Part shown: one piece after another, positions 8,053-27,910 of the stretch | Layout of the letters: every line of letters starts with the position of its first letter | Position numbering within the stretch: the stretch's first letter is position 1 | Assembly: GCA_041592495.1 (NCBI GenBank) | Contig: JBFHPZ010000001.1 | Span: 1 to 57,515, forward strand | Direction of reading: 5' to 3' | DNA from: Gammaproteobacteria bacterium | GTDB lineage: Bacteria; Pseudomonadota; Gammaproteobacteria; SZUA-229 | DNA: 57,515 nucleotides | Notes under the pieces: model-generated | Told to the model about the DNA's origin: nothing | Database searches by the model: none | What the model saw: only the letters and a program-made list of their open reading frames with translations | Position numbers and translations under genes: made by a program

Positions 8053-10104
8053 ATGAATCTGGGTGTTATTTCATACTCACTGGCTGCAGCCGGTTATCTG
8101 GTGCTGCTGCTGCTGTTACTGACGAGTTGGAAAAACAGCCTCCAGGCGAGGTTGCTAACCCTGGTAGTGCTGGTGAGTGTGACCTGGGCGTATTCCGCGA
8201 TTCAGGTTGCGATCGGTGGCGATGGTTATTCATGGCTGTATGTCATAACGGAATCTCTGCGTTACGCCCTCTGGTATTTGTTCCTTCTAAAACTTTTCGA
8301 TCTCGATGTGGAGCAACGGAGCTATAAGCAATTCGCCCGTTGGGCGATTCCAGTGAGTGTGGGTTTTTCGGTTGTAGTGATTCTACTGGAAGTATCCCAG
8401 GTGTTGAGGATGCACTCGCTTAATTATGTCGGGCACGTGATCCTCTCCATTATCGGGCTTGCCATAATCGAACAGGTATACCGCAATACCTCCCAAAAGC
8501 ACCTTTGGGCAATCAAGTATCTCATCATTGGCTGTGGCGGCGTATTTGCCTACGACCTGTTCCTCTACTCACACGCGCTCTTATTTCGAGGGATTGATTT
8601 GCAGCTATGGGAGAGCCGTGGAGCGGTTCACCTGGTGATTATCCCAATGCTGGCAATTGCCGCAGCCCGCAATAAATCCTGGAGCATGAATATTTTTGTT
8701 TCCAGGGAGATTGTGCTTAAAACCTCGGCATTTTTCGGTGGCGGGATGTATTTGCTGGTAATGGCGCTGGCTGGTTATTATCTGCGCGAAGTGGGTGGGG
8801 AATGGGGGATGCTGACCCAGGCAGTATTTTTCACGCTCGCCGTGATTCTCCTGGTTTCGATTTTATTATCTGAACAATTCAGAGTTCAATCCAAAGTATT
8901 TCTGGCAAAGCATTTTTATAAAAACAAATACGATTACCGGGAAGAATGGCTTAACCTGACACGAGATCTTAGCCAGCAATTGAGCGTATCTTCACGTTAC
9001 ACCATCGTCATTCAAGTCCTCGCGCGAATGGTCGATGCAAGGGCGGGAATGATCTGGGTTCGCGACGAGAAGGGGGACTATCTGAACGCGGGAGTCTGGC
9101 AGACACCCAGAATGGACGATACTCTGTCCCCAAATCTACCACTTATTAACTATCTTGCTGAAAAGCGCTATATCGTCAATGTAAAAGAATTTGCAAATCA
9201 GCTGCCTGAATATGAAGATTTGAAGCTACCTCAGAATTTCAATGAGCTATCAAGGCTATGGTTGATCATCCCGTTATTCGATCAAAGGGAACTAATGGGG
9301 TTCGTCCTGTTGATGGATCCATTGGTGGAGAGGAATATCAATTGGGAAGATCGCGATCTGCTTAAAACGGCAAGCAAGCAAGTATCCAGCTTCCTGCTGA
9401 TGCATAAGCAATCAGAAGAGCTACTGGAAGCGAAACAGTTTGAAGTGTTCAATCGCTTGTCTGCTTTTATGGTCCATGATCTGAAAAATATTGCCGCCGA
9501 GCTTGAGCTTGTGGCAAAAAATGCTGAAAGATTTAAGGATAATCCAGATTTTATTGAAGATGCGTTCTCAACGGTGAGTAACGCGGCGGGTGACATTAAA
9601 AAGTTGCTTGATCATTTCAGAAAACGCCAACAAAGTGACGAGCGCAAGAGCCTTGTTGATTTAATCGATATTGTAAAAGATGCTGTCAGTTTGAAAAGTC
9701 AAAAACAGCCAGTGCCTGCGGTGAAAGCGCCGGGCGAACCCTGCTATGTTTCAGCCGAAAAAAACCGGCTGATTAATGTGATTGCTCATATAATCGATAA
9801 TGCACAGGAAGCAACGGCAGACTCGGGCAGTATCTGGGTGGGATTCAAGACTGAGGATTCGCGCCACTATGTCAGCATAAGCGATACTGGTCATGGCATG
9901 GATAAAGATTTCATCAATACACGCCTTTTCCGACCGTTCGATACCACCAAAGGCAATGCCGGCATGGGGATCGGTATGTTCGAGAGTCGGGACTATATTC
10001 GATCGATGGGTGGGGATATTCAAGTAGAGAGTGAGCCATCTGTTGGAACGACGATGAATATCTGGCTGCCCGTGGCTAGTCCTGCTTTACTTAAACAGCC
10101 GTAA
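8053..10104 (+). CDS. prsK: PEP-CTERM system sensor histidine kinase PrsK-type
   Basis: About 300 aa of polytopic membrane N-terminus, a GAF-like middle, the H-box FMVHDLKN and the ATPase motifs DNAQEA...DTGHGMD...GNAGMGIGM. The 683-aa length and the position directly upstream of prsR fit the PrsK family. Confidence 0.85.
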   Translation: MNLGVISYSLAAAGYLVLLLLLLTSWKNSLQARLLTLVVLVSVTWAYSAIQVAIGGDGYSWLYVITESLRYALWYLFLLKLFDLDVEQRSYKQFARWAIPVSVGFSVVVILLEVSQVLRMHSLNYVGHVILSIIGLAIIEQVYRNTSQKHLWAIKYLIIGCGGVFAYDLFLYSHALLFRGIDLQLWESRGAVHLVIIPMLAIAAARNKSWSMNIFVSREIVLKTSAFFGGGMYLLVMALAGYYLREVGGEWGMLTQAVFFTLAVILLVSILLSEQFRVQSKVFLAKHFYKNKYDYREEWLNLTRDLSQQLSVSSRYTIVIQVLARMVDARAGMIWVRDEKGDYLNAGVWQTPRMDDTLSPNLPLINYLAEKRYIVNVKEFANQLPEYEDLKLPQNFNELSRLWLIIPLFDQRELMGFVLLMDPLVERNINWEDRDLLKTASKQVSSFLLMHKQSEELLEAKQFEVFNRLSAFMVHDLKNIAAELELVAKNAERFKDNPDFIEDAFSTVSNAAGDIKKLLDHFRKRQQSDERKSLVDLIDIVKDAVSLKSQKQPVPAVKAPGEPCYVSAEKNRLINVIAHIIDNAQEATADSGSIWVGFKTEDSRHYVSISDTGHGMDKDFINTRLFRPFDTTKGNAGMGIGMFESRDYIRSMGGDIQVESEPSVGTTMNIWLPVASPALLKQP

Positions 10105-10121
10105 TCACAGGAAGTGAGGAG

Positions 10122-11495
10122 ATGAAAAACAATAACGAATGCCTGCTTGTCGTGGAAGATAATCCAGGTATCCAGAAGCAGCTTAAATGGTCATTTGATG
10201 GCTATGAGGTGCACCTGGCCGACGATCGGGAATCGGCGCTTGAATTGGTGAGAAAGCACAAGCCACAGGTGGTTACGCTCGATCTTGGGTTACCGCCAGA
10301 TCGGGAAAATGCGACCCAGGGCATTTTGGCCCTTGAGCAAATACTGGATGAACTCCCCGAATGCAAGGTCATAGTCGTCACAGGGAATGAAGACCGGGAA
10401 AATGCACTTACGGCAATCAAGCTTGGCGCCTATGATTTTTATCAAAAACCGATTGATCCCGATATTCTCAGACTGATAGTGGATCGCGCATTTAATTTAC
10501 ACGCAATAGAAGCCGAAAACCGAAAGCTTGGCAGGCAGAAACTTGATTCGCCGATCAGCCGGATATTAGGTTCAAGTCAGGCTATGCAGACTGCATTGCG
10601 GATGACCGAGAAAGTCGCCGCTTCAGATGCAACTGCCCTGGTGCAGGGAGAAAGCGGGACAGGTAAAGAGTTAATTGCCCGTGCTTTACATGAATTAAGT
10701 CAGCGCAGTGACGAACCCTTTGTGGCTATTAACTGTGCAGCGATTCCGCACGAACTGCTGGAAAGCGAATTATTCGGTTATGAGAAGGGGGCGTTTACCG
10801 GCGCTCATAAAACAACGCCAGGGAAAATTGAGCATGCCAATGGAGGAACCCTGTTCCTGGATGAGATTGGCGATATGCCAATGTCCTTGCAGGCCAAACT
10901 GTTGCGCTTTTTACAGGAGAGAGTTGTAGAAAGAATCGGTGGGCGACAGTCTATTCCTGTTGATATACGGATTGTCTGTGCAACTCATCGCGACCTGGAG
11001 AAGGCTATTCGCGATGGAGATTTCAGGGAAGATCTTTATTTTAGAATATCTGAAATAGTTATTAATGTTCCGCCATTGCGTGATCGGGAAGAGGATATTG
11101 TATTACTCGCGCAATATTTCCTCGATCAATTTTCTGCGGAAATGAAAAAACGTTTCAAAGGCTTCAGTTCGGCTGCCAAGCGTAAGTTGGATGAATATCA
11201 GTGGCCGGGGAATGTGCGGGAACTGGAAAACAAAATAAAAAGGGCGGTCATTCTCACGGAAGGTAACCGAGTTGAGCCGGAGGATCTCGGGTTTTCCGCG
11301 GGTGCCGGTAGTGGGGATATGCCCATGCAGAGTTCACTGAGCCTTAAAGCGGCAAGAGAGGCGGTGGAGAGGAAAGTTATCAAGCAGGCACTGACTGTCT
11401 ATGAAAATAATTACTCCAAGGCGGCTGAAGCACTGGAGATCAGCAGGCCGTCGTTGTATAGCCTGTTAAAGAAACTGGGTATGGATGAGGCCTAG
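10122..11495 (+). CDS. prsR: PEP-CTERM-box sigma54-dependent response regulator PrsR-type
   Basis: Receiver domain (LLVVEDNPGI...VTLDLGLPP). AAA+ sigma54-interaction motifs GESGTGKE and GAFTGA (YEKGAFTGA). C-terminal Fis-type HTH YSKAAEALEISRPSLYSLLKKLG. Confidence 0.9.
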   Translation: MKNNNECLLVVEDNPGIQKQLKWSFDGYEVHLADDRESALELVRKHKPQVVTLDLGLPPDRENATQGILALEQILDELPECKVIVVTGNEDRENALTAIKLGAYDFYQKPIDPDILRLIVDRAFNLHAIEAENRKLGRQKLDSPISRILGSSQAMQTALRMTEKVAASDATALVQGESGTGKELIARALHELSQRSDEPFVAINCAAIPHELLESELFGYEKGAFTGAHKTTPGKIEHANGGTLFLDEIGDMPMSLQAKLLRFLQERVVERIGGRQSIPVDIRIVCATHRDLEKAIRDGDFREDLYFRISEIVINVPPLRDREEDIVLLAQYFLDQFSAEMKKRFKGFSSAAKRKLDEYQWPGNVRELENKIKRAVILTEGNRVEPEDLGFSAGAGSGDMPMQSSLSLKAAREAVERKVIKQALTVYENNYSKAAEALEISRPSLYSLLKKLGMDEA

Positions 11496-11589
11496 GAAGC
11501 TGTATCTGTTCTGAAATACTGTCTGGATGTGGTATATCCTGCTTTGTAAGTGAAGTATAGCCGTGCTGGGTAATGGCCATGGAGATAAC

Positions 11590-14382
11590 ATGAAAAAGTG
11601 TATCAATAAGTATGTGCATGCTTTGCTGGTGCTGGCAATGTTAATGACCAGTGGCTGCAGCCCTTCCAAAACAGACACCGAGTTACTCCAATCGGCAAAA
11701 GACTATATAAATAATAATCAGATAAGAGAATCTATTCTTGAGCTTAAGAACGCCTTGCAAGTAAACCCGCAAAATGCTGAGGCTCGCTTTCTGCTTGGCA
11801 AGCTTAACCTGGCGATCGGCAACCCTGCTTCGGCTGTGAAGGAGTTCGAGAGGTCGATTGAATATGGCTGGGATGAGGCAGAAGCAACATTATACCTGGC
11901 CCGGTCATTGTTGAATAATGGGCAATTTAATGAGTTGGCTACATTTGGAATCAATGAGACCTTTAGTAAGGAAACCCAGGCAAATTTGCATGGGTTAGTG
12001 GGTGCTGCGTACCTGGCGCGGAATGAGATCGTCAAGACATCGTCGCACCTCGATCTTGCAGCCAATCTTGATCAGAATTCCTTGTATGCCAAGATCACCC
12101 GAATTCGCCTTATGTTGGTGAAGGACGATCGTGCCGAAGCTAAACGCATTCTGGATAAGGCGCTTCAAATGTTTCCCGGCAATCAGGAGCTGTTACTGCT
12201 TTCGGCATTGATTTCGATCGAGGATGGCAATATTCAGGAGGCGATTGCTTCGTATGAGGCTGTACTGGCGAAAGAGCCGACCAAAATTGTCACAGCCTAT
12301 GCCAGGCAGGCGAGATTGGGTCTTGCGCGTATTTACGTGTATGGAAACCAGTTGCCTGAAGCTGAGAAAATTCTAGAGCCTCTTCACCAGGTTACCCCTG
12401 GTGATCCTGAGTTTAACTATCTATTGGGCCATATTGCTCTCCAAAAACAGGATTATTCACAGGCTGAAGAAAGGCTTCTTTCCGTGTTGAAAGTGGCCCC
12501 AGATCATTCCAATACCCATTTGCTCTTTGGTGTTGTGAATTACGAGCAAAAAGATTACGAGCAGGCTGCTTACTATATTTCAAAATTTCTGGCAAAGCAT
12601 CCGGATACACCGTCAGTGCGCAAACTGCTGGGGAAAATATATCTTGCGCTTGGGCAGCATGAAGAAGCACAACAAACGCTTACCTCGGCTGGTATGCCGG
12701 GCGATGATGCCGAATTGCAGGCAATGATCAGCTTGTCTCAATTTCGACAGGGTAATGTTGAGGCTGGCCTACAGGGATTGAAGCGCGCAGCCGAAGTTGA
12801 TCCCGAGAATAAGATATTAAGAAGAGAATTAATAAAGGCCTATATAGCTTCGGGTGAAACCAGCAAAGCTATCGATCATCTCAAGAAGGAAATTGCTGGC
12901 TCCAAGGATGTGCAAGATCAGGCTTTGCTCGTATCAGCCTATTTGCGCGCAGGTGAATTTGATAATGCAATCAACACCGTGTTAACCATGCGGGCTAAAA
13001 ATCCGGATAACATTAATATTAACACCCTGGCGGGAGTTGTCTTTGCAGCATCTGGCGATCTCGATAAGGCTCGTGAATATTTCAACGAGGTTCTGGGGTT
13101 GCATCCAAAGGATGAGATTGCTTCCCTGACGCTTGCGCGTGTCGAAGAAATAGACGGCAATACCGATAAGGCTATTGCTTTATATGAGAATTTAGCCTCG
13201 CAACCGGGGGGCTCTAGTGAGCCGTTACTCCAGTTGGCTAATCTTTATAGGCGTTCAGGTAATGATGATGAGCTAATTAAAGTCTTGAATCGTGCAGTGT
13301 CTAGTTACCCAGAGGACCCTCGGGGTTACATTCTGTTGTGCGATGCTTATCTTCAAAAAGGTGAAATTGAAAAGACGGATAAGGTTTTAAAAGCAGCGCT
13401 GTTGAAGTATGCCAACGAGGCTTCGTTAAAAACTATCGAAGGGCGCATCCTGCTGGCGAAAGGGGAGTTTAACAAGTCACTGCCGATCTTGCAGGGGGTG
13501 GTAGAGGCTAATCCTGGGTTAATAGTAAACCGGGTTCTGCTGGCAGAGAATCATCTGGCTTTAAATCAGCCCGACGAAGCAATCAAACAATTAAAAATGG
13601 TGCTCGAGAAACAGCCATTTCATCTGCCTGCAATGATATTAATAGCGAGAGCGCATTCGATGATAGGGGATTTCACTTCGGCACTTTCCCAGGCATTGAA
13701 TGTTCAAAAGTCCAACCCGGATTTTCCACACGGTTATGAACTTGAGGGAGATATCTGGTCACTTAAGAAGGACTTTATTCAATCCGCCAAAGCATTTTCA
13801 ACCGCATATGATCTCAAGCCAAGCAGTGAACTGGCGCTCAAGTACGCCAGGGCTCAGTATTTGTCGGGGCATACAAATGAGGCCATTACAGTTCTGTCAT
13901 CTTCCCTAAATACAGACCCGGGTAATATTCGGTTGTTACTGTTTCGAGCGGATCTGTATCAAATGAGTCAGCAGCAGTTAGCGGCACTGGATGACTATGA
14001 GTCAATTATTGCGCTTGATGCTCATCACGCGGTTGCATTAAATAATGCGGCCTGGATACACGATGTCGCCGGCAATCATGAAAAAGGTCTGATGTATGCG
14101 AGGAGGGCCCATGATATTTCTCCCAATGATCCCGGTATTCAGGATACGTACGGCTGGTTACTGGTACGCAACAATGACTCAGTGCCAGGTCTGGAATTAC
14201 TGGAATCAGCGAGAAAATTATTAAGCGATTCAAACGAAGTGCAATACCATTATGCTGCCGCTCTGTCCAAACTGGGCCGGTATGACGAGGCTCGGTCGAT
14301 CCTGGCGCCGCTGATTGATTCCGGAAAAGAATTTGATGGTCGTTCCGATGCGGAAGTGATGCTGAAAAAGCTGGAAAATTAA
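11590..14382 (+). CDS. prsT: PEP-CTERM system TPR-repeat lipoprotein PrsT-type
   Basis: ATG at 11590 follows GGAG. Lipobox LAMLMTSG|C. About 900 aa of TPR repeats, located immediately after prsK-prsR. Confidence 0.85.
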   Translation: MKKCINKYVHALLVLAMLMTSGCSPSKTDTELLQSAKDYINNNQIRESILELKNALQVNPQNAEARFLLGKLNLAIGNPASAVKEFERSIEYGWDEAEATLYLARSLLNNGQFNELATFGINETFSKETQANLHGLVGAAYLARNEIVKTSSHLDLAANLDQNSLYAKITRIRLMLVKDDRAEAKRILDKALQMFPGNQELLLLSALISIEDGNIQEAIASYEAVLAKEPTKIVTAYARQARLGLARIYVYGNQLPEAEKILEPLHQVTPGDPEFNYLLGHIALQKQDYSQAEERLLSVLKVAPDHSNTHLLFGVVNYEQKDYEQAAYYISKFLAKHPDTPSVRKLLGKIYLALGQHEEAQQTLTSAGMPGDDAELQAMISLSQFRQGNVEAGLQGLKRAAEVDPENKILRRELIKAYIASGETSKAIDHLKKEIAGSKDVQDQALLVSAYLRAGEFDNAINTVLTMRAKNPDNININTLAGVVFAASGDLDKAREYFNEVLGLHPKDEIASLTLARVEEIDGNTDKAIALYENLASQPGGSSEPLLQLANLYRRSGNDDELIKVLNRAVSSYPEDPRGYILLCDAYLQKGEIEKTDKVLKAALLKYANEASLKTIEGRILLAKGEFNKSLPILQGVVEANPGLIVNRVLLAENHLALNQPDEAIKQLKMVLEKQPFHLPAMILIARAHSMIGDFTSALSQALNVQKSNPDFPHGYELEGDIWSLKKDFIQSAKAFSTAYDLKPSSELALKYARAQYLSGHTNEAITVLSSSLNTDPGNIRLLLFRADLYQMSQQQLAALDDYESIIALDAHHAVALNNAAWIHDVAGNHEKGLMYARRAHDISPNDPGIQDTYGWLLVRNNDSVPGLELLESARKLLSDSNEVQYHYAAALSKLGRYDEARSILAPLIDSGKEFDGRSDAEVMLKKLEN

Positions 14383-14568: not shown

Positions 14569-16128
14569 ATGATCGAACAAATATTTCAGATTCTGGGTTA
14601 CCTACATGGTATGTGGCGTTATCGCTGGTCTGCGCTTGCAGTTACCTGGTTGAGCGCAATTGCGGGATTAATTGTTGTTATGGCTTTGCCTAATACCTAT
14701 GAGGTGAAGGCTGTCTTTCATGTTGATACGCAATCTATTCTGAACACCCTGTTGAAAGGGCTTGCCGTAGAAGACCAGGAAACCAATGCCGATGTCGAAC
14801 TGGTCAAGCGTATGATGTTGAGTCGGGAAAACCTTTTGCAAGTTATTCGCGAAACAGACATGGATCTGTTAGCAACAACTCCACAGAGCCTTGATTTATT
14901 GGTTGATAAATTAGCGAAAGATATTCAGATCTCCGGTGGAAGTGACGGGGGGTGGCGTCGTTCCAACAATAATATCTACGAAATAACTTATAGTGCCAGG
15001 CAACCAGACCAGGTGTATAAGGTTGTTTCCTCCTTTATGGATTCATTTATTGAAAACACATTGAATGCCGGACGGGTTGATACGGCTTCAGCGGAAGCTT
15101 TTCTTGACAAGCAAATCAAAGATTACGAAGCCCGTCTTGTCGAGGCAGAGCAACGACTTGCGGATTTCAAGAAGAAGAATGTCGGCGCAATGCCTGATGA
15201 ACGAGGTGGTTACTATAATCGTTTGCAACGCAGCGAGGTTGAGGCTGAAGAAACCAAAACAGCGATTCGCCTGGCGGAAAGGCGCCTGGCTGAACTCACC
15301 AAGCAATTACAGGGAGAGAAACCTGTTTATTCCTCTGCAGGTGTCGATATCAAGGCGAGAAAAGCTGAGTATTATCGACAGCTTGAATTATTGCTGACTG
15401 AATATACAGAACAGCATCCTGATGTTATCGCGCTGAAGCAGAAAATAGAAAATCTTTCAAGTGAGAAAGGTTCTGTTCCATTGGCCGGATTGAACCCTGA
15501 AAGCGCGCAGTTCGAGACCAACCCGGTCTATCAGGAGCTGAAAATAGAAGAAAGCAAGGCCAGGATCGATCTCGAAACACTGCGCTTAACGTTGAATGAT
15601 CAACTTAATCAAATTTCCAAGTTGAGAGCAGCAATCGACTCTATTCCCGAAGTTGAAGCTGAATATTCACGACTTAACCGTGACTATGAAGTTACCAATG
15701 AACGTTATCTTGAATTGGTGGAAAGACGTGAGTCAGCCGAATTGGCTCGTGAAGCCAAGCAAAGTGCTAGTGAAGTAAAGTTCAGAATTATCGAGCCTCC
15801 TATCCTGCCAACCAAGCCAACAGGGCCTAACCGACAGCTGTACAGCGTAGCAGTGTTCATTGGCGCAATAGGCCTGGGTATGGGATGGGGGCTGGTGCGT
15901 TTCCTTATGCACCCGACCTTTATCGGTGTCAACCAGCTCAAGGAAGCCTTCACTTATCCTGTTCTAGGGTCGGTGGGTTTAAATCTAACAGAGGATGGTA
16001 GGAAAAGGCGACTCAACAAAATGTTAATGCTGGCGGGAAGCCTTGCATTCCTTGCGCTCATATTTGTTATTGTAATCTTGCTTGGTAACCAGGTAACGGA
16101 CGTTATCCATCCTTTGCTCTACAGTTAA
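14569..16128 (+). CDS. Polysaccharide chain-length determinant (Wzz/PCP, EpsF-like)
   Basis: N-terminal TM followed by PNTYE, a long coiled-coil periplasmic region and C-terminal TM segments. It is followed directly by the kinase-like partner. Confidence 0.8.
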   Translation: MIEQIFQILGYLHGMWRYRWSALAVTWLSAIAGLIVVMALPNTYEVKAVFHVDTQSILNTLLKGLAVEDQETNADVELVKRMMLSRENLLQVIRETDMDLLATTPQSLDLLVDKLAKDIQISGGSDGGWRRSNNNIYEITYSARQPDQVYKVVSSFMDSFIENTLNAGRVDTASAEAFLDKQIKDYEARLVEAEQRLADFKKKNVGAMPDERGGYYNRLQRSEVEAEETKTAIRLAERRLAELTKQLQGEKPVYSSAGVDIKARKAEYYRQLELLLTEYTEQHPDVIALKQKIENLSSEKGSVPLAGLNPESAQFETNPVYQELKIEESKARIDLETLRLTLNDQLNQISKLRAAIDSIPEVEAEYSRLNRDYEVTNERYLELVERRESAELAREAKQSASEVKFRIIEPPILPTKPTGPNRQLYSVAVFIGAIGLGMGWGLVRFLMHPTFIGVNQLKEAFTYPVLGSVGLNLTEDGRKRRLNKMLMLAGSLAFLALIFVIVILLGNQVTDVIHPLLYS

Positions 16129-16145
16129 CCTGATGTTGGTATCAA

Positions 16146-16919
16146 ATGAATATGAATCTTGATAGCTATCAAAATGAGATGGGGACAAACCTTCTTGAAG
16201 TAAATGGGCGTTTGAAAGCGCTTAATATGCTGGTTGCTGACAGCAATATCGGCGTGGCAGCACGGGATGAATACAGGCGAATCAAGGCGCCGCTACTGTC
16301 GAACGCATTCGGAAAAAGTTCATCGTTAGTTGATAATGGCAACATAATCATGGTTACCAGTACCATGCCGGATGAAGGTAAAACCTACTCTGCGGTAAAT
16401 CTGGCCTTGTCTATGGCAAACGAGCAGGATCATACCGTGTTGTTAGTGGATTGTGACGTCGCAAAGAAAGGCTCAAGCCGCTTGCTCGGGGCTGAGAAAC
16501 AGCCGGGGTTGATGGATGTTCTGGAGAATGAATTCCTCGACATCAGCGATGTGATGATGAAAACTGATTTGCCCAGTTTTACGGTTGTATCTGCCGGTAA
16601 GCAGCATGACTATGCGGCGGAACTATTATCCAGTAAACGCATGGCTTCGGTGATGAAGGAAATTCGTTCTCGCTACGAAGATCGTATAATTATACTCGAT
16701 ACCCCGCCGGTTCTTGCAACACCGCAAACAGCTGTACTGGCCAACCTTGTTGGCCAGATCGTCTATGTTGTTGAAGAAAGTAAAACACCGAAATACCTGG
16801 TGGAAGAAGGATTGGACCAGTTGCCGAAAGATAAAGCTATTGGTCTTGTTTTAAATAAGCGTGAGACTTTTGTTGGCCAGTCCGGCGGATACTATGGTTA
16901 CTATGCCGTAGTGGATTAG
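16146..16919 (+). CDS. BY-kinase-type ATPase partner of the chain-length determinant (EpsG-like)
   Basis: Walker A-like TSTMPDEGKT, Walker A' LLVDCDV, Walker B IIILDTPP and a Tyr-rich C-terminal tail GGYYGYYAVVD. Confidence 0.8.
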   Translation: MNMNLDSYQNEMGTNLLEVNGRLKALNMLVADSNIGVAARDEYRRIKAPLLSNAFGKSSSLVDNGNIIMVTSTMPDEGKTYSAVNLALSMANEQDHTVLLVDCDVAKKGSSRLLGAEKQPGLMDVLENEFLDISDVMMKTDLPSFTVVSAGKQHDYAAELLSSKRMASVMKEIRSRYEDRIIILDTPPVLATPQTAVLANLVGQIVYVVEESKTPKYLVEEGLDQLPKDKAIGLVLNKRETFVGQSGGYYGYYAVVD

Positions 16920-16924
16920 AGTTT

Positions 16925-17782
16925 ATGCAAATTAGAAATGCGCTTACTGTCGACGTAGAGGACTACTTTCAGGTTTCGGCGTTTGAGAACGCCGTAGATC
17001 GTAAGGATTGGGTAAATCAACCCTTGAGAGTTGAGCGTAATACCCATCTTCTCCTCGATTTATTCGACGAATATAATACAAAAGCTACCTTTTTCGTGCT
17101 TGGTTGGGTGGCTGATCGAATTCCCTCCATTGTGAAAGAGATTGCTGATCGCGGACATGAGATTGCCTGTCATGGGTATAGTCACAGGCTTGTTTATAAT
17201 CAGACCCCGGAGGAATTTCGCGAGGAAACTCTGAAATCAAAAATGGTTCTGGAAGATCTGTCGCAACAGTCCATTTACGGGTATCGCGCAGCAAGTTATT
17301 CGATTACGAATAAGTCCCTTTGGGCACTGGATATACTGGTCGATGCGGGTTTTATTTATGATTCCAGTATATTCCCGGTACGGCATGATCGTTATGGTAT
17401 TCCAGACGCTAACAAATATCCTCATGAACTTAAAACATTGACGGGCAACACCATTGTTGAATTTCCGTTGACCACGGCCCAATGGATGGGTTCGACAGTG
17501 CCAATTGCAGGGGGAGGGTATTTCAGGCTGTTTCCGTATTGGCTTACAAAGGCGGGATTGGGTCAGTCAAACGACAAAAATGAACCTTTCATCTTCTATT
17601 TGCATCCCTGGGAAATAGACGCGGAACAACCGCGCATTGAGGCTTCCTGGTTCTCGAAATTTCGTCATTACAATAATCTCGACAAATGTTATCCCAGACT
17701 GAAATCGTTATTAACGGATTTCAAATTCACGACAACTCGAGATGTTCTTGCTGCAAAAGGCCTGTTATCTGTTAATGATTAA
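16925..17782 (+). CDS. Polysaccharide deacetylase, PEP-CTERM-locus subfamily type
   Basis: N-terminus ALTVDVEDYFQVSAFE, GHEIACHGYSH and a C-terminal DUF3473-like region (FYLHPWEID). This matches the exosortase-A-associated deacetylase pattern. Confidence 0.85.
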   Translation: MQIRNALTVDVEDYFQVSAFENAVDRKDWVNQPLRVERNTHLLLDLFDEYNTKATFFVLGWVADRIPSIVKEIADRGHEIACHGYSHRLVYNQTPEEFREETLKSKMVLEDLSQQSIYGYRAASYSITNKSLWALDILVDAGFIYDSSIFPVRHDRYGIPDANKYPHELKTLTGNTIVEFPLTTAQWMGSTVPIAGGGYFRLFPYWLTKAGLGQSNDKNEPFIFYLHPWEIDAEQPRIEASWFSKFRHYNNLDKCYPRLKSLLTDFKFTTTRDVLAAKGLLSVND

Positions 17783-20887: not shown

Positions 20888-21194
20888 TTGACTTGCGTCC
20901 CTGGACGTAACCTGGCCGGATATAAAAATAGAGTGTGAGCCAGGCGAGGCAGCCAAATAGCAGCGTGTACGCACCCAAGATATACAAAATTATTGAATCG
21001 GAATTAAATCCAAAAAATAGGGTTAATGAGGCTCCAGCCAGGGCAATGTACAGGGATGGCCAGAGGATTAGCCAGTTAATATGAATCTTGTATTGCATTA
21101 GCCTGGCAGACCGGCTAAATAACCATACGCCAGTGCCATAGAGTAAAGTCAGAAATGCGGTTTCGGCCAGAAGAAACAGGATTTTCATTAACAT
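20874..21194 (-). CDS. Small integral membrane protein (106 aa, 3-4 TM)
   Basis: Uniformly hydrophobic. Its ATG overlaps the TAA of the upstream GMC gene (TAATG) and its 3' end overlaps the GT2 start, which suggests translational coupling. Confidence 0.5.
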   Translation of the reverse strand: MLMKILFLLAETAFLTLLYGTGVWLFSRSARLMQYKIHINWLILWPSLYIALAGASLTLFFGFNSDSIILYILGAYTLLFGCLAWLTLYFYIRPGYVQGRKSNEIK

Positions 21195-22777
21195 TATGCA
21201 ACCTGTTCCCTGTCTTTGATGTGATCAGCCAACCTCAAGGCAAGGGCTACAATCGTCAGTGTTGGATTGACATGGCCAGATGTTGGAAATACCGAGCTTC
21301 CGGCTATGTATAAATTCTCGATATCATGAATTTTGCAATCACGATCGACGACGCCCTGGCTTGGAGAGTCGGACATGCGTGTTGTGCCCATATGGTGGGC
21401 AACATCCCGAAAATTATGCGCCCAGTCCGAACGGTTATTTTCCATCCAGTCTTTCATTCTGAAGCGTGAATGATAGTGGCGTGTAAGCTGTTTGGCGATT
21501 AATTGCTGGGATTCGACTGTTGTCTGCTTGTCAATGTCGAGCATGCGCCAGTCGACTTTGGAGCGTCTTAATCCCAGGCCGTCAGTTTCATCGCTAAGCA
21601 TGATGCGACTATCCGGGTTCGGCGCTTGCTCTGTATCCATCGACAATACGGAGATGTTGTTAATAAGTGTATTCGATTCCGGTCGAAGGAAACGTCGCCG
21701 GGTATTCATTATCAACTCATCAATATCGCGTATTACATTAACTGCATTCTGATCCAGGTCTTTTAACGGTTCACCGTTTAAAATGTTTGATGCGATCGCG
21801 GATGCGGAGTGGGTTGCTGATTGATTATTGCCTTCGTAGTAGTAAATCGCACCTGCATTCAGCAGTTTACTTTCCCGTTGCACCTGGTCACTGGTACGGA
21901 TGCCCAATACATAGCTGTCTTTGCGGGATTGATAGGTGTTAAAGGTTTTTTTCAGGTCGTAGGGGTCGCCAAAGTGGACCACGGTAGCCTTGCTACGCAG
22001 GTGCTCCATGAAGTATCGGCCTACCAGGTCGTTACGATTTCCAAGGCCGTTGGGGTGTACATTGTCGGAAAGCAGCAACATTCTCGCATTTTCAATACCA
22101 CCACAGCTGAGTACAAATCGTCTGGCCTTGACGCGTGCCTGGCGCTTTTCAAGTGAGCTGATATTGACGTGGGAAATCGAGTTTCCTTCGGGCGTTGCCT
22201 GTATTCGCGTGACATTCGCATTCAGGATTACATCGATATTGTCGGCGGTGCTGAGCGTATCTTTGTATTTCGGTCCAAACCGGGTTGGTGCGCTGAATTT
22301 CCATACCTGGTTTTCCAACTCGGAAGCATCAAACTTTGATGCGGGTATGCGAAATTGAGTGAAAACGTCATCCGTTGCTGCGAAAATCCCGAGATCACAG
22401 TTTTTCCAGGCTCTTTTGTAATAGGGAGAGAGTTCCTGGAGAGAGATAGGCCAGCCGCTGTTGGGTACCCAGTCACGTTTTTCGAAATCGATAGGATTAA
22501 GGGGAGCGCAACGTCCGTCCCAGTGATTGGTGGTTCCGCCGAAAAATCTGAGGCGTGAAAGTATGCTGTCATCAAGCGGTACGCCAACATTTTCCACGTC
22601 ATAAAGTTGCTGGGTATTTATGTTGAGTCCCATGTCGCCGCTTTCCAGCAGGCAAACCCTCAGTGGAGTGTTCAAAAACTCATTGGCAATACTGATACCT
22701 GCAGCGCCAGCGCCAATAATACACAGGTCGCACTCAATGAGTTGATCATCCGGTATGTCATTCAAATTGCGTATCAT
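21194..22777 (-). CDS. GMC-family FAD-dependent oxidoreductase
   Basis: N-terminal FAD fold CDLCIIGAGAAGISIA and C-terminal HHMGTTRM...YIAGSSVFPTSGHVNPTLT, typical of GMC oxidoreductases. Confidence 0.85.
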   Translation of the reverse strand: MIRNLNDIPDDQLIECDLCIIGAGAAGISIANEFLNTPLRVCLLESGDMGLNINTQQLYDVENVGVPLDDSILSRLRFFGGTTNHWDGRCAPLNPIDFEKRDWVPNSGWPISLQELSPYYKRAWKNCDLGIFAATDDVFTQFRIPASKFDASELENQVWKFSAPTRFGPKYKDTLSTADNIDVILNANVTRIQATPEGNSISHVNISSLEKRQARVKARRFVLSCGGIENARMLLLSDNVHPNGLGNRNDLVGRYFMEHLRSKATVVHFGDPYDLKKTFNTYQSRKDSYVLGIRTSDQVQRESKLLNAGAIYYYEGNNQSATHSASAIASNILNGEPLKDLDQNAVNVIRDIDELIMNTRRRFLRPESNTLINNISVLSMDTEQAPNPDSRIMLSDETDGLGLRRSKVDWRMLDIDKQTTVESQQLIAKQLTRHYHSRFRMKDWMENNRSDWAHNFRDVAHHMGTTRMSDSPSQGVVDRDCKIHDIENLYIAGSSVFPTSGHVNPTLTIVALALRLADHIKDREQVA

Positions 22778-22786
22778 GGATCGTCT

Positions 22787-23185
22787 CTAGGATAGAAGGC
22801 GAAGAGCGCACAATCGGGCTTCAGTGACAGTAATGGGCCAGCCATCGAGAAACAGCACTTTGTCGTTCATCAAATCTTCCTGAAGGCGCGCTGAGATGGA
22901 TGCTCTCAAAGAACTGGAGGAGGCCGGTGCATATGGATCAAGGATTGTGGCCAGCAGCCGGTCAAAGTCATTTTCGGCTGGATGTTGTGCCAGATAAGCC
23001 TGTCCCAGCTTTTTGCTGGCCGGGTTTTCGGGTAATGCCCGCAGGAATTCGCGCATAGCATCAGCCTGAGTTGTTATCGATTTTCTCGAAATAGACTGTG
23101 CAGGTGCGGATTTCAGGAATGTTGAGGACAGTGCAACGAGCTGCAGTGCGATGAGAAATTTTCTTCTGTTGTGATTGATCATCAT
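22787..23185 (-). CDS. Small Tat-signal subunit partner of the GMC oxidoreductase (gluconate 2-dehydrogenase subunit 3-like)
   Basis: MMINHNRRKFLIALQLVALSS has a twin-arginine-like signal. Its size and its position just upstream of a GMC gene match the usual two-gene arrangement. The track start at 23239 is a TTG. Confidence 0.55.
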   Translation of the reverse strand: MMINHNRRKFLIALQLVALSSTFLKSAPAQSISRKSITTQADAMREFLRALPENPASKKLGQAYLAQHPAENDFDRLLATILDPYAPASSSSLRASISARLQEDLMNDKVLFLDGWPITVTEARLCALRLLS

Positions 23186-23414
23186 TGCATGTTCTTGTTT
23201 CAATTCAGATATTGTGGAGTTTAGCGCTGTTGAGGGCAACCGTTTTCTGATTTCGCAACCCTGATTGCTACCTGAGAGTTCCCCGGCCGTTACCGAATAG
23301 GTAAAATTTATACAATATATTGATTATATTAAAAAATAATGTTATCAATGCCGCGTTTATCCCTGACTGCAACTATCCATAACGCTCGACCAGTTGGCCT
23401 GAGATATTTTCATT

Positions 23415-23828
23415 ATGTTCAAAAGAATAACCGAAATAGCGCTGTTGCTGATTCTATCTGTTCTGCTCTTTCCCCTGTATGCACTGGTATCGGCAGCGGT
23501 CGATTTCCTTTTAGGCGGTCTGGCGTTGCAGGATACCCTGAAATTTGAATCCCATCGGGTGTTTTTCGACCAGTTCCTGGCGGCCTGGATGGCTTCATTG
23601 CCGGTATTTACTGTTCTGTTCCTGCTGGTTTACTGGCCGCTGTCCGTTATTCTACGCCGGTTGCGATTCCCCTGTTTCGGGATTTTTCTGACATCTGTCG
23701 TAATTGCAGGCACGGGAATAGGGGTGTTCCTTTACGGCATGGCCCCTGTGCCGCTATTGAGCCTACTGTTAAGTTCGATGTTGCTGGCCGCGGTGCATGC
23801 CGTAGGGTTCTGCCGACGTCTTGATTAA
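23415..23828 (+). CDS. Hypothetical integral membrane protein (137 aa, about 4 TM)
   Basis: Hydrophobic throughout and first gene of a + strand three-gene unit. No named motif. Confidence 0.5.
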   Translation: MFKRITEIALLLILSVLLFPLYALVSAAVDFLLGGLALQDTLKFESHRVFFDQFLAAWMASLPVFTVLFLLVYWPLSVILRRLRFPCFGIFLTSVVIAGTGIGVFLYGMAPVPLLSLLLSSMLLAAVHAVGFCRRLD

Positions 23829-23847: not shown

Positions 23848-25290
23848 ATGAAACGATTAATAACCCTCATTCTGCTCTATACCTTTGCCGCCATGTCCCT
23901 GGCAGACAATCGCGTAGTCCTGTTCGGGGGCGGCCCCATGCCTGAAGATTCGCAGGTATCCATTGAGAAAAATACGCTCTGGATTCTGTCTTATCTTCAA
24001 AGCCAGTTTGCCGCGGAAGATATTGCATTTTATTACACCGATGGGAATGGAGCTTTCCCCGATGTGCGGGCGCCACAGGCACAGCCGGTTTCGCCTGATA
24101 CGGAAATGCTCACCCGAGTATTTCGTAAGGAATCCGAACTGGGAATTGAGTATCGACAGAACCTGTTCGATACCGAGCATGGATCGGCCGCTGCCTATGA
24201 GCTTGTTCCCGCGTTGGACAATGCATTTCAGTCTGTCGCTGCGGGTGACACCCTGACCTTGATTTACCAGGGGCATGGTGGGTACCGCCCCGCTAATACC
24301 CTGGATAATTATTTCAGATTGTGGAACGGAACCGAGCTCACGGTGACCGATATGGCTTCCTTGATGTCCCGGGCCGATGCCAATGCCCGCATCCGCTTTC
24401 TCTTTCCGCAGTGTTTTTCCGGGGCTTTCTCCCGGGTGATTTACAAGAACGCTGATTCTAAGCAGGGGTTATCCGAAAACACACGTTGCGGTTTTCTGGC
24501 GCAACCGGAATATCTGGAATCGGAAGGCTGTACAGACAGTGTCTATACAGGCGATTATCGGGACTATTCCTCTTATTTTTTCAGCGCTCTCAGTGGCAAT
24601 ACCATTGGCGGGCAGCCAATTCCGGGCCAGCCTGATCTGAATTCAGATGGGACTATTACCCTGCGTGAGGCGCACCTGTATACCCTGGAACATGCACGTA
24701 GTATTGATTATTCACGCTCGACCAGTGAAGACTACCTGGAAAACTGGCAGCCCTGGTACCTGAAATGGGCGCCGTCTTCCCATGCGGTGGACAACGAGTA
24801 TGCTGCTTTAGCACGACGCTTGTTATCTGATCTGGGTTATACCGGCGAGTGGCGGCAAGTATCGCCGCAGCTCTGGAAGGATATTCGTGATCTGGAAAAG
24901 CTTGCCTCCGACGACAAGCAGAAACTTGACGCACTTAATACAAAAATCAGGAAGCTTCAAAATCGCATTCAGTTGCCCCTGTTGCTGGAATGGCCCTATC
25001 TAAAAAACCCCTACGGGGAGACGTACCTGCGGAATATTGTCAAAGACCTTCCGAGTATGTATTCCCGGCTCGAACAAGACCCGGCATACCAGGAGTTGCA
25101 GGCGTTACAGCAAGAATACGAACAACTTGAAATCACGGAACTGGAGCATCGACGTAACCTGACCCAGCGTCGCAAGGTAATCCGTTTCTACAAATTGGCG
25201 AACCTCCTGGACCAGTTTGGGCGTCATGGTAGCGAGCAGGAACAACAGGATTACCAACGGCTTCTCAGCTGTGAAGATTCTGTCTTGTAA
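23848..25290 (+). CDS. Secreted protein with a legumain/clan-CD-like (peptidase C13-type) His...Cys core and a C-terminal coiled coil
   Basis: Signal peptide MKRLITLILLYTFAAMSLA. A beta-strand VVLFGGG is followed by TLIYQGHGGY (His codon 24274-24276) and, 46 aa later, RFLFPQCFSGAF (Cys codon 24412-24414). That is the order and spacing expected of caspase-fold cysteine peptidases. The gene is confident; the family call is motif-level only. Confidence 0.5.
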   Translation: MKRLITLILLYTFAAMSLADNRVVLFGGGPMPEDSQVSIEKNTLWILSYLQSQFAAEDIAFYYTDGNGAFPDVRAPQAQPVSPDTEMLTRVFRKESELGIEYRQNLFDTEHGSAAAYELVPALDNAFQSVAAGDTLTLIYQGHGGYRPANTLDNYFRLWNGTELTVTDMASLMSRADANARIRFLFPQCFSGAFSRVIYKNADSKQGLSENTRCGFLAQPEYLESEGCTDSVYTGDYRDYSSYFFSALSGNTIGGQPIPGQPDLNSDGTITLREAHLYTLEHARSIDYSRSTSEDYLENWQPWYLKWAPSSHAVDNEYAALARRLLSDLGYTGEWRQVSPQLWKDIRDLEKLASDDKQKLDALNTKIRKLQNRIQLPLLLEWPYLKNPYGETYLRNIVKDLPSMYSRLEQDPAYQELQALQQEYEQLEITELEHRRNLTQRRKVIRFYKLANLLDQFGRHGSEQEQQDYQRLLSCEDSVL

Positions 25291-25331: not shown

Positions 25332-26483
25332 TTGGATATTTCACTGCATTTTGGATTATCGGGGCTGCTGGAGCTTCAGCAGTCCTGGCAAACGCTGGAA
25401 AGCAAAATCAATCGGCCGAATCATTCGCATTCGTTTGCCTGGTGGCAGGCTTATCTCGAGGAGCTGGCCAGCCAGCCTGATGAATTCTGCTTCATTTCGG
25501 TGCGGCAGGATGGCGAGACTATTGCGATTTGTCCATTTGTAACGCAGGTGCATAGGCGGTTTGGACTGTTCAGCGCCCGGGTACTGGCCTCTGTGCATGA
25601 CCCTAATTTCCTGTTTCCCGATATCATGGTTGTACCGCAGCACCAGCGGCCGGACTTTCTGCCGGAACTGGCAAAGCGTCTATCCCGTCTATTGAAGTGG
25701 GATATGTTGGTGATTGGCGGGGTCATGGGTGTACTGGAGACTTCGCACGCCGTTGCCTGCCTGCCCAAGCTGTCGCAACCGCGGCTGTTTCGCGAGAATG
25801 AAATCGGCTGTTTTGATGTACCTATGGATGATTACGAGGCTTACCAGCAACGCCTTTCGCGCAAGGATCGGGCTAACCTGCGTCGCACAACCAAGAAAAT
25901 CGAAGCGTATGACGATTGTTTACATCAGTCTGTCATGGAGCCAGAGAAGATACCGCAGGCCCTGCAAACATTTCTGGATGTTGAAGCGGCCGGCTGGAAA
26001 GGCGCGGGTGGCGAGGGTACCGCCATCAAGGTCAATCCGGAGATGACACGCTTTTATGAAAAGCTGGCCGCGGCCTACGCTGCATCCGGCCAATGCCAGG
26101 TCAACCTGTTGTCAGTGGAAGGCAACACCATCGCCGGACAGTTTGCATTCCAGTTGGGCGATACCCTGTACATGAACAAAATCGGGTTTAACCCGGATTA
26201 TTCCGGGCTTAATCCAGGTAACGTGCTCATGGGCAAGCAATTCGAACGTTATTGTGCGGATCCTGGCATTGCCCGCGTCAACCTGATGAGCAGTGCGCAT
26301 CATCTCAAGAAGTGGGCCCCTGACCTGGAACCCAGCTATCGCTACTATTTATGCAACACGACCCTCGCCGGTCTCGCAATTACAGCGTTTTTCCGGCTAA
26401 AACCCTGGTTAAGAAAGGCGAAAGCGCGATTGCATGAGATGAAGAAGAAAGACCCGGCGGCAACGACCGGCGAGGTCTCCTGA
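25332..26483 (+). CDS. FemAB/CelD(BcsL)-like GNAT-fold transferase
   Basis: ...FAWWQAYLE... and LDVEAAGWKGAGGEGTAI...GNTIAGQFAFQLGDTLYMNKIGFNPDYSGLNPGNVLM form a CelD-like pattern. It has a TTG start and no early in-frame ATG. Confidence 0.65.
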   Translation: MDISLHFGLSGLLELQQSWQTLESKINRPNHSHSFAWWQAYLEELASQPDEFCFISVRQDGETIAICPFVTQVHRRFGLFSARVLASVHDPNFLFPDIMVVPQHQRPDFLPELAKRLSRLLKWDMLVIGGVMGVLETSHAVACLPKLSQPRLFRENEIGCFDVPMDDYEAYQQRLSRKDRANLRRTTKKIEAYDDCLHQSVMEPEKIPQALQTFLDVEAAGWKGAGGEGTAIKVNPEMTRFYEKLAAAYAASGQCQVNLLSVEGNTIAGQFAFQLGDTLYMNKIGFNPDYSGLNPGNVLMGKQFERYCADPGIARVNLMSSAHHLKKWAPDLEPSYRYYLCNTTLAGLAITAFFRLKPWLRKAKARLHEMKKKDPAATTGEVS

Positions 26484-26488
26484 TTCCG

Positions 26489-27910
26489 TTAGGGGATGTT
26501 CTTGATAATCGGAGGACCGATGAGTTTGGTTAATGCCACCGGTAGCCGTTTCCAGGTGTTGATCATCAGTGCATATTTTTTATTGGTAGGATTGATCGCT
26601 GGCAAGGCTTCGCCTTCACGCAGCCAGTAATGCCAATAGGACTGTTTCGGTTCGGCTCCCCATTGACGTTTGAAGCGATAGGTGCCGGAATCGATAGAGG
26701 ATCTGCCGAAATCAAATATCTTGAATCCCTGGCTGACAGCATGCTGTAAGACCGACCAGTACAGGAGCATGTTGACGCTCAGATGATTCATATCCTGTCG
26801 GGAGGATGCCCAGGGGATTTCCAGTCTGTCGCGATAACCCATGAGAAAACCTGCTGCTACCGGCTTTCCGTTCAGGCGGACGGACACAATCCAGCAATGT
26901 TCTTCAAATGTTTTCAGGATGGCCTCAAAAAAATAGCGACCATAAACCGGTGTGCCAAGGTCGCGCATATTGCGACTGAAAACGGCATAGAAATCATTCA
27001 GTAGCTCAGCTTTGCCAACCCGGATATCCGGGTTTTCACGTTGTGGTCGCTTGATCTGGGCGCGTAGCTTGGGAGTGAAGCCGTTCCACAGGGCTTCAAT
27101 ACTGTCCGGGAGTTTCAATAACATGTTCACTTTTTCCGAGCGGACAGGCATGCCTTCGCGCGGAATATCGTCCCGGTACTCAATGTGCGAAACGCCCAGG
27201 GTGGTAGCGTACTGATTCGCCTGGTTAATCAACAGTTGTTCGATTTCCGGGTGATCGGCGATAGCGCCGCCGTAATTAAAATAAGGCATGGAAACCAGGA
27301 AATCGCCAAACAGGCGGCTATTGAGCCTTATCAAAGGCAATACGCCAAGGACGTTGTTTTCCGGGCCACGTGCCTGCAGGTAGTGGGCCGTGTGACCAAA
27401 TGTGGTTTTGACAAGATCGCGCCAGGCGGAAAGGTGATAAATACTGCTATGCGAATTCTGGGCTACATAGGTATCCCAGGCCTGGGTGTCTTCGCTCAAG
27501 GTATCAATCGTGATTTCCTGAGGTCTAATTTGGGCGAGCCGGTAGCGAGGAATTGCTTTTTCCTGCTGGCTCTTTGTTGACTCAGTGTCGTTCGCAAAAA
27601 ATTCCAGTAGCTGTTCTTCCCGCGACTTCTGGGTGCTTGCGAGCTGTTTTAACTGTTCAGATAACGTCTTCACCTTTGCCTTGAGAGGCTCAATGGGTTC
27701 ACCCGCGGCCTTGGCCTGACCGATCTGTCTGGACAAGCCTTTTCTGTCATCGTCCAGCGACTTTATATTGTCATTCAGGGAGTTCAGCTCGGTGGAGATT
27801 TGCTCGATTTCGGTGAGGGAGGCGCTATCGGGCGAGGGATTTCTTTCACGGTAGGCGGCAACGGGATCGGCAAGCAAGATCTTGCGTTCAGCTTTGGAGA
27901 AACCACTCAT
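26489..27910 (-). CDS. FemAB-related protein (PEP-CTERM-system-associated type) with an N-terminal seryl-tRNA-synthetase-arm-like coiled coil
   Basis: Residues from about 130 to 473 (IYHLSAWRDL...LPLIRLNSRLFGDFLVSMPYFNYGG...EIPWASS...FDFGRSS...YRFKRQWGAEP) fit the FemAB-related family. Residues from about 30 to 110 include LSRQIGQAKAAGEPIEPLKAKVKTLSEQLKQL, which resembles the SerRS N-terminal arm. Confidence 0.8.
   Translation of the reverse strand: MSGFSKAERKILLADPVAAYRERNPSPDSASLTEIEQISTELNSLNDNIKSLDDDRKGLSRQIGQAKAAGEPIEPLKAKVKTLSEQLKQLASTQKSREEQLLEFFANDTESTKSQQEKAIPRYRLAQIRPQEITIDTLSEDTQAWDTYVAQNSHSSIYHLSAWRDLVKTTFGHTAHYLQARGPENNVLGVLPLIRLNSRLFGDFLVSMPYFNYGGAIADHPEIEQLLINQANQYATTLGVSHIEYRDDIPREGMPVRSEKVNMLLKLPDSIEALWNGFTPKLRAQIKRPQRENPDIRVGKAELLNDFYAVFSRNMRDLGTPVYGRYFFEAILKTFEEHCWIVSVRLNGKPVAAGFLMGYRDRLEIPWASSRQDMNHLSVNMLLYWSVLQHAVSQGFKIFDFGRSSIDSGTYRFKRQWGAEPKQSYWHYWLREGEALPAINPTNKKYALMINTWKRLPVALTKLIGPPIIKNIP

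Follow-up and report, generated by a model that had tools for sequence, protein, structure and literature searches.

Does a cysteine enzyme of clan CD, found beside an exosortase, take part in the sorting of PEP-CTERM proteins? The question is raised by a gene at 23848..25290 on the + strand of a 57,515-nucleotide stretch of gammaproteobacterial DNA (contig JBFHPZ010000001.1 of assembly GCA_041592495.1; the whole stretch that was analysed is referred to here as the window). The gene, whose product (P0001) we call the enzyme, lies in what family scans of the window genes identify as a complete XrtA/PEP-CTERM exopolysaccharide locus (the initial annotation had spoken of a PEP-CTERM locus), and encodes a protein predicted to be exported that carries the His-Cys dyad of clan CD. 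This clan includes caspases, legumain, gingipains and the glycosylphosphatidylinositol (GPI) transamidase, and we know of few bacterial periplasmic members with a known role. We find that the enzyme represents a large family without a name, that it is paired with a small membrane protein at most of its loci, and that the family is independent of the PEP-CTERM/exosortase machinery that stands beside it in the window.

The frame of the caspase-fold enzyme is open from 23821 and, in the open reading frame (ORF) list and its translation, gives a precursor of 480 aa when read from the ATG at 23848 to 25290 (+). Residues 1–19, MKRLITLILLYTFAAMSLA (23848..23904, +), read as a Sec-type signal peptide likely cut before DN, with the usual n/h/c layout of charge, hydrophobic core and small-residue site. 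Of 226 homologues of 460–530 aa, 217 have a comparable hydrophobic stretch at the N-terminus, and the enzyme is predicted to be exported out of the cytoplasm. The motifs first singled out in the protein are all at the residues quoted for them: VVLFGGG occupies residues 23–29, with N42 standing 13 residues past G29; GHGG (residues 142–145) holds His143 (codon 24274..24276, +; motif IYQGHGG); and PQCFSGAF (187–194) holds Cys189 (codon 24412..24414, +; motif FPQCFSGAF). The motifs RCGF (213–216) and ESEGC (224–228) supply a conserved pair, Cys214 and Cys228, at the ends of CGFLAQPEYLESEGC (residues 214–228; 24487..24531, +), and because this is a conserved cysteine pair in an exported protein it probably forms a periplasmic disulfide. 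A 12-residue loop, D263-L-N-S-D-G-T-I-T-L-R-E274 (24634..24669, +), follows the canonical EF-hand pattern and is a putative Ca2+ site; scored as D-x-[DNS]-x-[DNS]-G-x-[ILVM]-x3-[ED], the strict pattern is matched by 173 of the 242 homologues, and 225 fit a relaxed version of it. The Pfam EF-hand model has no match to the enzyme, and EF-hand regions of calcium-dependent kinases gave weak, marginal profile matches only (E about 1). Metacaspases are Ca2+-dependent, and the loop suggests that the enzyme may bind Ca2+ and depend on it as they do. A Trp-rich connector, STSEDYLxxWQPWYLRW (291–307), is near-invariant across the family.

An AlphaFold2 model of the enzyme, built from an alignment of 56 relatives (A1, also used for profile searches), has a mean predicted local distance difference test score (pLDDT) of 92.4 and a predicted TM-score (pTM) of 0.89. 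Strand 135–145 of the model closes at GH143G and strand 181–186 precedes QC189, and the arrangement is that of clan CD, since His143 closes one strand and Cys189 comes just past the next. When the model was compared with the PDB by Foldseek, 31 matches were obtained at E ≤ 1e-3, every one of them clan-CD. Arabidopsis metacaspase 9 ranked first (E = 3.9e-6), followed by GSU0716 and the Candida and yeast metacaspases; the best of these metacaspase and GSU0716 matches (PDB 8a53, 7qp0, 4f6o and 3bij) have E values of 4e-6 to 4e-4. The human GPI transamidase PIGK, at rank 9, has the top query-normalised TM-score (0.34), and MALT1 and, at rank 25, a legumain-type enzyme were also matched, with a probability of 1.00 for the metacaspases, GSU0716, PIGK, MALT1 and the legumain-type enzyme alike, so that the caspase-like fold first proposed for the protein is borne out in the model. 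Sequence comparison sets the dyad in the same place. A PDB sequence search with the enzyme found GSU0716 (3bij, E = 2.6e-3), and the A1 profile found 3bij again, then metacaspases 4 and 1. In the profile alignment to 3bij the family motif YNGHG falls on YSGHG and tQCySGgF on dSCHSGtv, the metacaspase catalytic-Cys motif, and an hhalign comparison of A1 with the C14 protein of the window's own genome gives the same register, with YAGHG on GHG and SCFSG on QCySG. Fold and His-Cys dyad are well supported by the model and these alignments; that His143 and Cys189 are adjacent in space we infer from the homology of their positions alone.

The enzyme nevertheless reaches no existing family model. A Pfam scan returned no family for it even at E ≤ 10, PF01650 and PF00656 included, and in NCBIfam the model caspase_w_EACC1 scored 18.3 bits, far below its cut-off of 140, so the search of C13 and caspase profiles that the initial annotation had recommended yields no Pfam or NCBIfam model at threshold. 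Across the 56 members, weak Pfam matches at E ≤ 1 fall solely on clan-CD families, namely Raptor_N (PF14538) in 16 (best 1.7e-4), Peptidase_C13 (PF01650) in 5 (best 3.8e-4) and Peptidase_C25 in 2, with Peptidase_C14 (PF00656) in 0 of the 56. Sequence leans slightly to C13/Raptor and structure slightly to C14, neither at the threshold of membership, and on the modelled structure the enzyme is a member of clan CD (caspase-haemoglobinase fold) outside all named families of the clan. The legumain/GPI8 (C13) label under which it had been introduced holds for the clan fold; as a family label it is weakly supported, with no PF01650 match to the enzyme, weak matches in 5/56 relatives and metacaspases as the best structural matches. 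A reading as a defence-system caspase was also rejected, as a scan with PADLOC models at E ≤ 0.01 was empty for the enzyme, the membrane partner and the neighbouring acetyltransferase. As a separate observation, the C14 protein used for comparison scores 96.5 bits to PF00656, which in a genome-wide search matches only that gene (contig C25). This only true Peptidase_C14 protein of the genome (L085:419-2388) is 345 aa long with an N-terminal signal-like segment, and its gene overlaps by 4 nt the end of another, whose 311-aa product has a single hydrophobic segment and a Cys-x2-Cys motif and could be a partner of the anti-sigma kind.

Relatives of the enzyme are numerous. A profile-free scan of 1.84 billion cluster representatives counted 879 clusters at 50% identity with E ≤ 1e-3, and 650 with E ≤ 1e-10, nearly all of about 480 aa. 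The 120 relatives listed by a word-indexed search are named 'hypothetical protein' in their sources, bar one with the UniRef label 'Caspase family p20 domain-containing', and none of them has a precomputed Pfam domain. In a set of 242 full-length homologues that spans only 25–65% identity to the query, His143 is kept in 231 and Cys189 in 239, as had been expected of a working dyad, with the flanking residues Gly142 (231), Gly144 (239) and Gln188 (241) equally stable; Asn42 (231), Cys214 (235), Cys228 (238) and E476 (241) are also retained. The gene is real and under selection, and the family is a large, uncharacterised and unnamed bacterial one, a family-level variant that is new within a well-known clan; our literature search found no paper describing it. 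Its members come from Gamma- and Betaproteobacteria, and assemblies of Myxococcota, Gemmatimonadota, Verrucomicrobiota and Bdellovibrionales contain copies as well. Closer to the window the gene is accessory and patchily distributed, since of 41 genomes related to the window's own, only 3 carry it. One of these three, the same-family relative G042 (contig C19; L090:1480-2955), has a single in-frame TGA at a non-conserved position (GRSRL*KPLTG), away from the catalytic Cys; either gene decay or an error in sequencing is the probable cause.

The gene's most constant companion was found by comparing 80 genome loci and several metagenome contigs, using tblastn, ORF clustering and a hidden Markov model (HMM) of the small membrane protein; counts of the upstream partner refer to the 75 loci with enough upstream sequence, and counts of flanking genes to the 62 loci with full flanks. 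A homologous ORF of ~140 aa with four transmembrane (TM) helices stands directly upstream of the enzyme gene in 67/75 loci, and on annotated contigs the two genes overlap by 4–20 nt. The window's copy encodes a small inner-membrane protein of 137 aa with four predicted TM helices (23415..23828, +), the stop codon of which lies 20 nt before the enzyme ATG. In L030 and in six cluster representatives (P0136, P0144, P0169, P0171, P0176 and P0195) the 4-TM protein and the enzyme are fused in frame. The L030 fusion, at 9455-11353 of a 127-kb contig from a Pseudohongiellaceae metagenome-assembled genome (MAG; JBBDLF010000015.1), has 632 aa, of which residues 4–135 match the TM HMM, and it is equal in length to the cluster representative P0136 and ends in the identical C-terminal CEAGGTLQ. 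What was the signal peptide becomes in the fusions a fifth TM helix after the four of the 4-TM domain. This topology, together with the distribution of charge, suggests that the 4-TM partner is N-in/C-in and fits a catalytic domain placed outside the cytoplasm, in the periplasm. Searches of Pfam and NCBIfam returned no family for the partner; the copy of Granulosicoccus antarcticus (L001:9561-10004) scored 23.4 bits to PF16995 (TM region of LysX-type lysyl-tRNA synthetase), short of the cut-off of 26.8, and this match was set aside as probably an artefact of hydrophobic segments. The 4-TM protein is a near-obligate partner of the enzyme family.

Beyond this pair the neighbourhood holds two further recurrent genes. 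In the window the enzyme gene is the middle one of a three-gene unit on the + strand, followed by a gene for a 383-aa Acetyltransf_6 protein, a FemAB/CelD-like GNAT without a signal peptide (25332..26483, +; PF13480, E = 8.8e-23). In 48/62 loci the enzyme gene has an Acetyltransf_6 homologue within 4 kb, in 40/62 it has a TobZ/NodU-type O-carbamoyltransferase within 1.5 kb, and 38/62 have both. The carbamoyltransferase matches NovN, TobZ and GdmN at E about 1e-90, and NodU in NCBIfam. The usual order on one strand (GNAT, carbamoyltransferase, TM, enzyme) recurs in Granulosicoccaceae, Chromatiales, Sedimenticolaceae, Thiodiazotropha, Competibacteraceae, a Myxococcota MAG and Gemmatimonas MAGs. 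The betaproteobacterial Sphaerotilus loci have the GNAT upstream with no carbamoyltransferase match, and in a Verrucomicrobiaceae locus the GNAT is about 3.9 kb upstream, among other genes. These conserved partners (the upstream 4-TM gene, the downstream Acetyltransf_6 gene and the O-carbamoyltransferase gene that most other genomes have) had been overlooked by the initial annotation. Neighbours in Granulosicoccaceae that were considered and left out of the module are PTA, asparaginase II, TrpRS-like and OmpA genes, judged to be lineage-specific synteny with housekeeping genes; the phosphotransacetylase in particular scores as a bona fide Pta.

Two of these neighbourhoods carry side information on possible targets. 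The GNAT, TM and enzyme module is present in Sphaerotilus uruguayifluvii (L036), S. natans ATCC 13338 (L058) and S. sulfidivorans (L063). The sheath of Sphaerotilus consists of a glycoconjugate whose amino sugars bear Gly-Cys peptides ('thiopeptidoglycan'), and a link between sheath and module is speculative. The Sphaerotilus strains can be cultivated, as can the carriers Marinobacter sp. and Granulosicoccus antarcticus. On the metagenome contig Ga0136852_10000705 (L088:1-11470) the four-gene operon stands a few kb from lpxD-fabZ-lpxA, lpxB and a GFO_IDH_MocA and DegT aminotransferase pair, which hints that lipid A or lipopolysaccharide is a possible target in some lineages.

The wide sample of loci also answers the question with which we began. 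It had been proposed that the enzyme serves the PEP-CTERM system as a GPI8-like transamidase, removing the C-terminal signal or attaching cargo to the polymer alongside the exosortase. The position of the window gene inside an XrtA locus, the occurrence of XrtA-locus markers near the gene in a few other loci (L066, L041, L037 and L084) and the presence of PIGK among the structural matches speak for this. However, only 6 of 62 loci have any XrtA-locus marker within 10 kb; of the 30 carrier genomes, 17 lack a match at E ≤ 1e-5 to the exosortase HMM TIGR02602, several of 5–7 Mb (Granulosicoccaceae) among them; and most copies of the enzyme gene sit among housekeeping genes. By these counts of loci and genomes the functional tie to PEP-CTERM sorting is largely refuted at the level of the family, and for the window's own enzyme we regard a role of this kind as extremely unlikely.

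The C-terminal part of the enzyme, described at first as a helical region, is confirmed here as 165 residues that form a helical hairpin in the AlphaFold2 model. The domain (residues 317–480; 24796..25287, +) contains helices at 317–328, 335–381, 391–410, 412–460 and 463–476, of which 335–381 and 412–460 form an antiparallel coiled coil; a conserved WP(382–383)xLxxPY motif lies between these two long helices, and C475-E476 is found near the C-terminus. Modelled alone, the C-terminal 193 residues reach a pLDDT of 92.2, and a Foldseek search with that model found nothing in the PDB at E ≤ 1e-3; legumain was not matched. The closest structures are the PI3K p85 iSH2 coiled coils (E ≥ 0.019), which are generic matches, and a legumain-like prodomain (LSAM) was rejected for the domain, coiled coils being the only matches. 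The HlyD hairpin region gave a weak profile match (E = 0.0067). HlyD-type periplasmic adaptors resemble the domain in having a long antiparallel alpha-hairpin whose turn bears conserved residues, but the enzyme lacks lipoyl and beta-barrel domains, its neighbourhood has no pump genes, and the likeness may be that of a generic coiled coil only. The hairpin is roughly 70 angstrom long and is probably a stalk or docking arm.

We favour, with moderate confidence, the reading that the enzyme is an exported and catalytically competent clan-CD cysteine enzyme, a Ca2+-binding periplasmic peptidase or transpeptidase held at the membrane by its partner, encoded in a mobile glycoconjugate-decoration cassette that was recruited to the exopolysaccharide locus of the window. 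It would hydrolyse or transfer peptide bonds in the periplasm, with His143 as general base and Cys189 as nucleophile, in a complex with the 4-TM inner-membrane protein, the genes of the two being translationally coupled across most genomes and, in a few, fused, and the coiled-coil hairpin with its conserved WP and PY residues would serve it as stalk or docking arm. The TM/enzyme pair, the cytoplasmic GNAT and, in most genomes, the O-carbamoyltransferase would make up a horizontally mobile cassette. Because the GNAT and the carbamoyltransferase share the cassette with the pair, its task may be to process or mature an envelope glycoconjugate that bears amino-acyl or acyl and carbamoyl decoration. 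The window's cassette, which lacks the carbamoyltransferase, would have entered the XrtA locus in the midst of its deacetylase, FemAB and ATP-grasp genes. The deacetylase/FemAB pairs and the ATP-grasp ligase suggest a polymer with amino-acyl or peptide substituents, and the enzyme would act on that polymer with its decorations, or on an attached peptide, and not on PEP-CTERM sorting signals. Several points weigh against this reading. To our knowledge every characterised clan-CD enzyme acts on a protein or peptide and none on a glycan, and the reading therefore has to assume that the glycoconjugate bears a peptide moiety. No carbamoyltransferase was detected in the window's genome (85% complete), and as a core component in that organism it was rejected. 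In 8/75 loci the enzyme stands alone among housekeeping genes, without partner, GNAT or carbamoyltransferase and with its GHG, QCxSG and C-terminal CE motifs intact, which implies that it is able to exist without the cassette. Finally, a shared operon is no proof of a common substrate.

The solo copies, with these motifs kept, are also an argument for another view, that of a stand-alone periplasmic processing or quality-control protease which cleaves envelope proteins unrelated to the cassette and has its neighbours through shared regulation or mobility, and established knowledge of clan-CD enzymes as protein-cleaving agrees with it. Yet the tight, same-strand and often overlapping order of 4-TM, GNAT and carbamoyltransferase genes recurs in Gammaproteobacteria, Myxococcota and Gemmatimonas, and since such recurrent order is hard to maintain otherwise, functional coupling is favoured and we consider the stand-alone protease unlikely. 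A more specific proposal borrows the logic of sortase and Fem-type enzymes: the GNAT would place an amino-acyl group, with its amine free, on a sugar that is lipid-linked or part of a polymer, and the enzyme would ligate the C-terminus of a protein or peptide to that amine, in the manner of sortase with its Fem-built cross-bridge and of GPI transamidase with ethanolamine. Enzyme and FemAB/CelD-like GNAT are co-conserved (48/62 loci), natural transpeptidases are found among the clan-CD relatives (PIGK at rank 9 and legumain-type ligases at rank 25), the enzyme appears to be tethered to the membrane by its partner, and the deacetylase and FemAB pairs around it in the window would create and acylate sugar amines. 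But no candidate cargo with a common C-terminal motif was identified, the GNAT may move a plain acyl group and not an amino acid, some solo copies of the enzyme have no GNAT, and the idea is purely inferential; it strikes us as distinctly unlikely. Comparably doubtful is the picture of the TM/enzyme pair as a Gram-negative envelope transpeptidase on a coiled-coil stalk that would ligate peptides or proteins to amino-acylated and carbamoylated sugars, themselves products of the GNAT and O-carbamoyltransferase of the operon, independently of the exosortase. Last, the protein could be a non-catalytic clan-CD pseudo-enzyme, a scaffold or binding module like the N-terminal domain of Raptor or the pseudo-orthocaspases, whose dyad residues are replaced according to one published account (PMC6426788). 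The non-proteolytic caspase-like domain Raptor_N is the most frequent weak Pfam match (16/56) and the long coiled coil suggests a structural role, but a His, a Cys and flanking Gly and Gln that are almost invariant in 242 sequences at 25–65% identity are the signature of a working active site, and we think it very unlikely that the enzyme is inactive.

Set beside characterised systems, the enzyme appears closest to the C14 metacaspases and orthocaspases and to GSU0716, which are its best structural matches and share the His-Gly after one strand and the Cys-x-S-G after the next; Ca2+ dependence is a property of these metacaspases, and the enzyme family has its conserved EF-hand-like loop. It differs from them in being secreted, in a Q-C motif where they have S-C or A-C, in the 165-residue coiled-coil hairpin, the 4-TM partner and a different gene neighbourhood, and in the lack of a PF00656 match at E ≤ 10. 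With legumain and PIGK/GPI8 (C13; PDB 8imx_K and 6l4v) it has in common the clan-CD fold, the Cys-x-Ser-Gly motif and an extracytoplasmic site of action, where these enzymes work at the membrane with TM partners, as the enzyme is predicted to do. The conserved N42 stands shortly past the first strand, as does Asn42 of legumain, a third catalytic residue in the C13 family, and may be equivalent to it. In contrast to this group, the enzyme has no PF01650 match and carries an antiparallel coiled coil in place of an LSAM prodomain, and no GPI-T-like subunits are encoded nearby, its partners being the 4-TM protein, the GNAT and the carbamoyltransferase. The Raptor N-terminal domain (PF14538), the most frequent weak match of the members, is eukaryotic, cytosolic and thought to be non-catalytic, whereas the enzyme has a near-invariant dyad and is predicted to be exported. 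Sortase A with its FemXAB-built cross-bridges offers an analogy of logic and not of homology: in both, an extracytoplasmic Cys-His enzyme depends on, or is encoded beside, a Fem-type transferase that could build an amine acceptor, but sortase A is a beta-barrel of unrelated fold, and no LPXTG-like cargo was identified for the enzyme.

Around the three-gene unit the window holds the XrtA locus itself, with PrsK, PrsR and PrsT at 8053-14382, a chain-length determinant, a tyrosine kinase and a deacetylase at 14569-17782, the XrtA-associated FemAB protein at 26489-27910, the exosortase at 40280-41791 and EpsB_2 at 48997-50463, besides glycosyltransferases, an export protein and the ATP-grasp ligase. 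Divergent from the three-gene unit, at 21194..23239 on the - strand, are genes for a GMC flavoprotein (GMC_oxred_C, E = 5.5e-25) and a small subunit with an RRKFL (Tat-like) signal. By clustering, the GMC cluster is found near the enzyme gene in 17/85 loci, including the window, L086, L037, L066 and the Granulosicoccaceae loci; it is a recurrent neighbour and not a universal one, its membership of the module is uncertain, and the flavoprotein may be a periplasmic sugar oxidase of the same decoration pathway. The closest relative of the enzyme (P0003, 61% identity; contig L086) has the same layout, in which GT2, GMC and small-protein genes are divergent from the TM, enzyme, GNAT and deacetylase genes. 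Elsewhere in the window, between 32000 and 44000, the guanine-plus-cytosine content falls from about 0.51–0.54 to 0.36–0.41 over three GT4 genes, an O-antigen-ligase-like gene, the exosortase and others, which suggests that this block is a swapped-in variable cassette.

The analysis defines a large family that Pfam and NCBIfam do not cover, distinctive in its architecture and sharing an operon with glycan-decorating enzymes, and corrects a tempting link to PEP-CTERM sorting. It thereby offers a testable entry point to an envelope-modification pathway. Should the pair prove to be a transpeptidase, it would represent a new route by which peptides or proteins are attached to surface glycans, cross-linking or decorating the glycan, and would be a bacterial counterpart of the GPI transamidase, and of the logic of sortase and Fem enzymes, that needs no exosortase.

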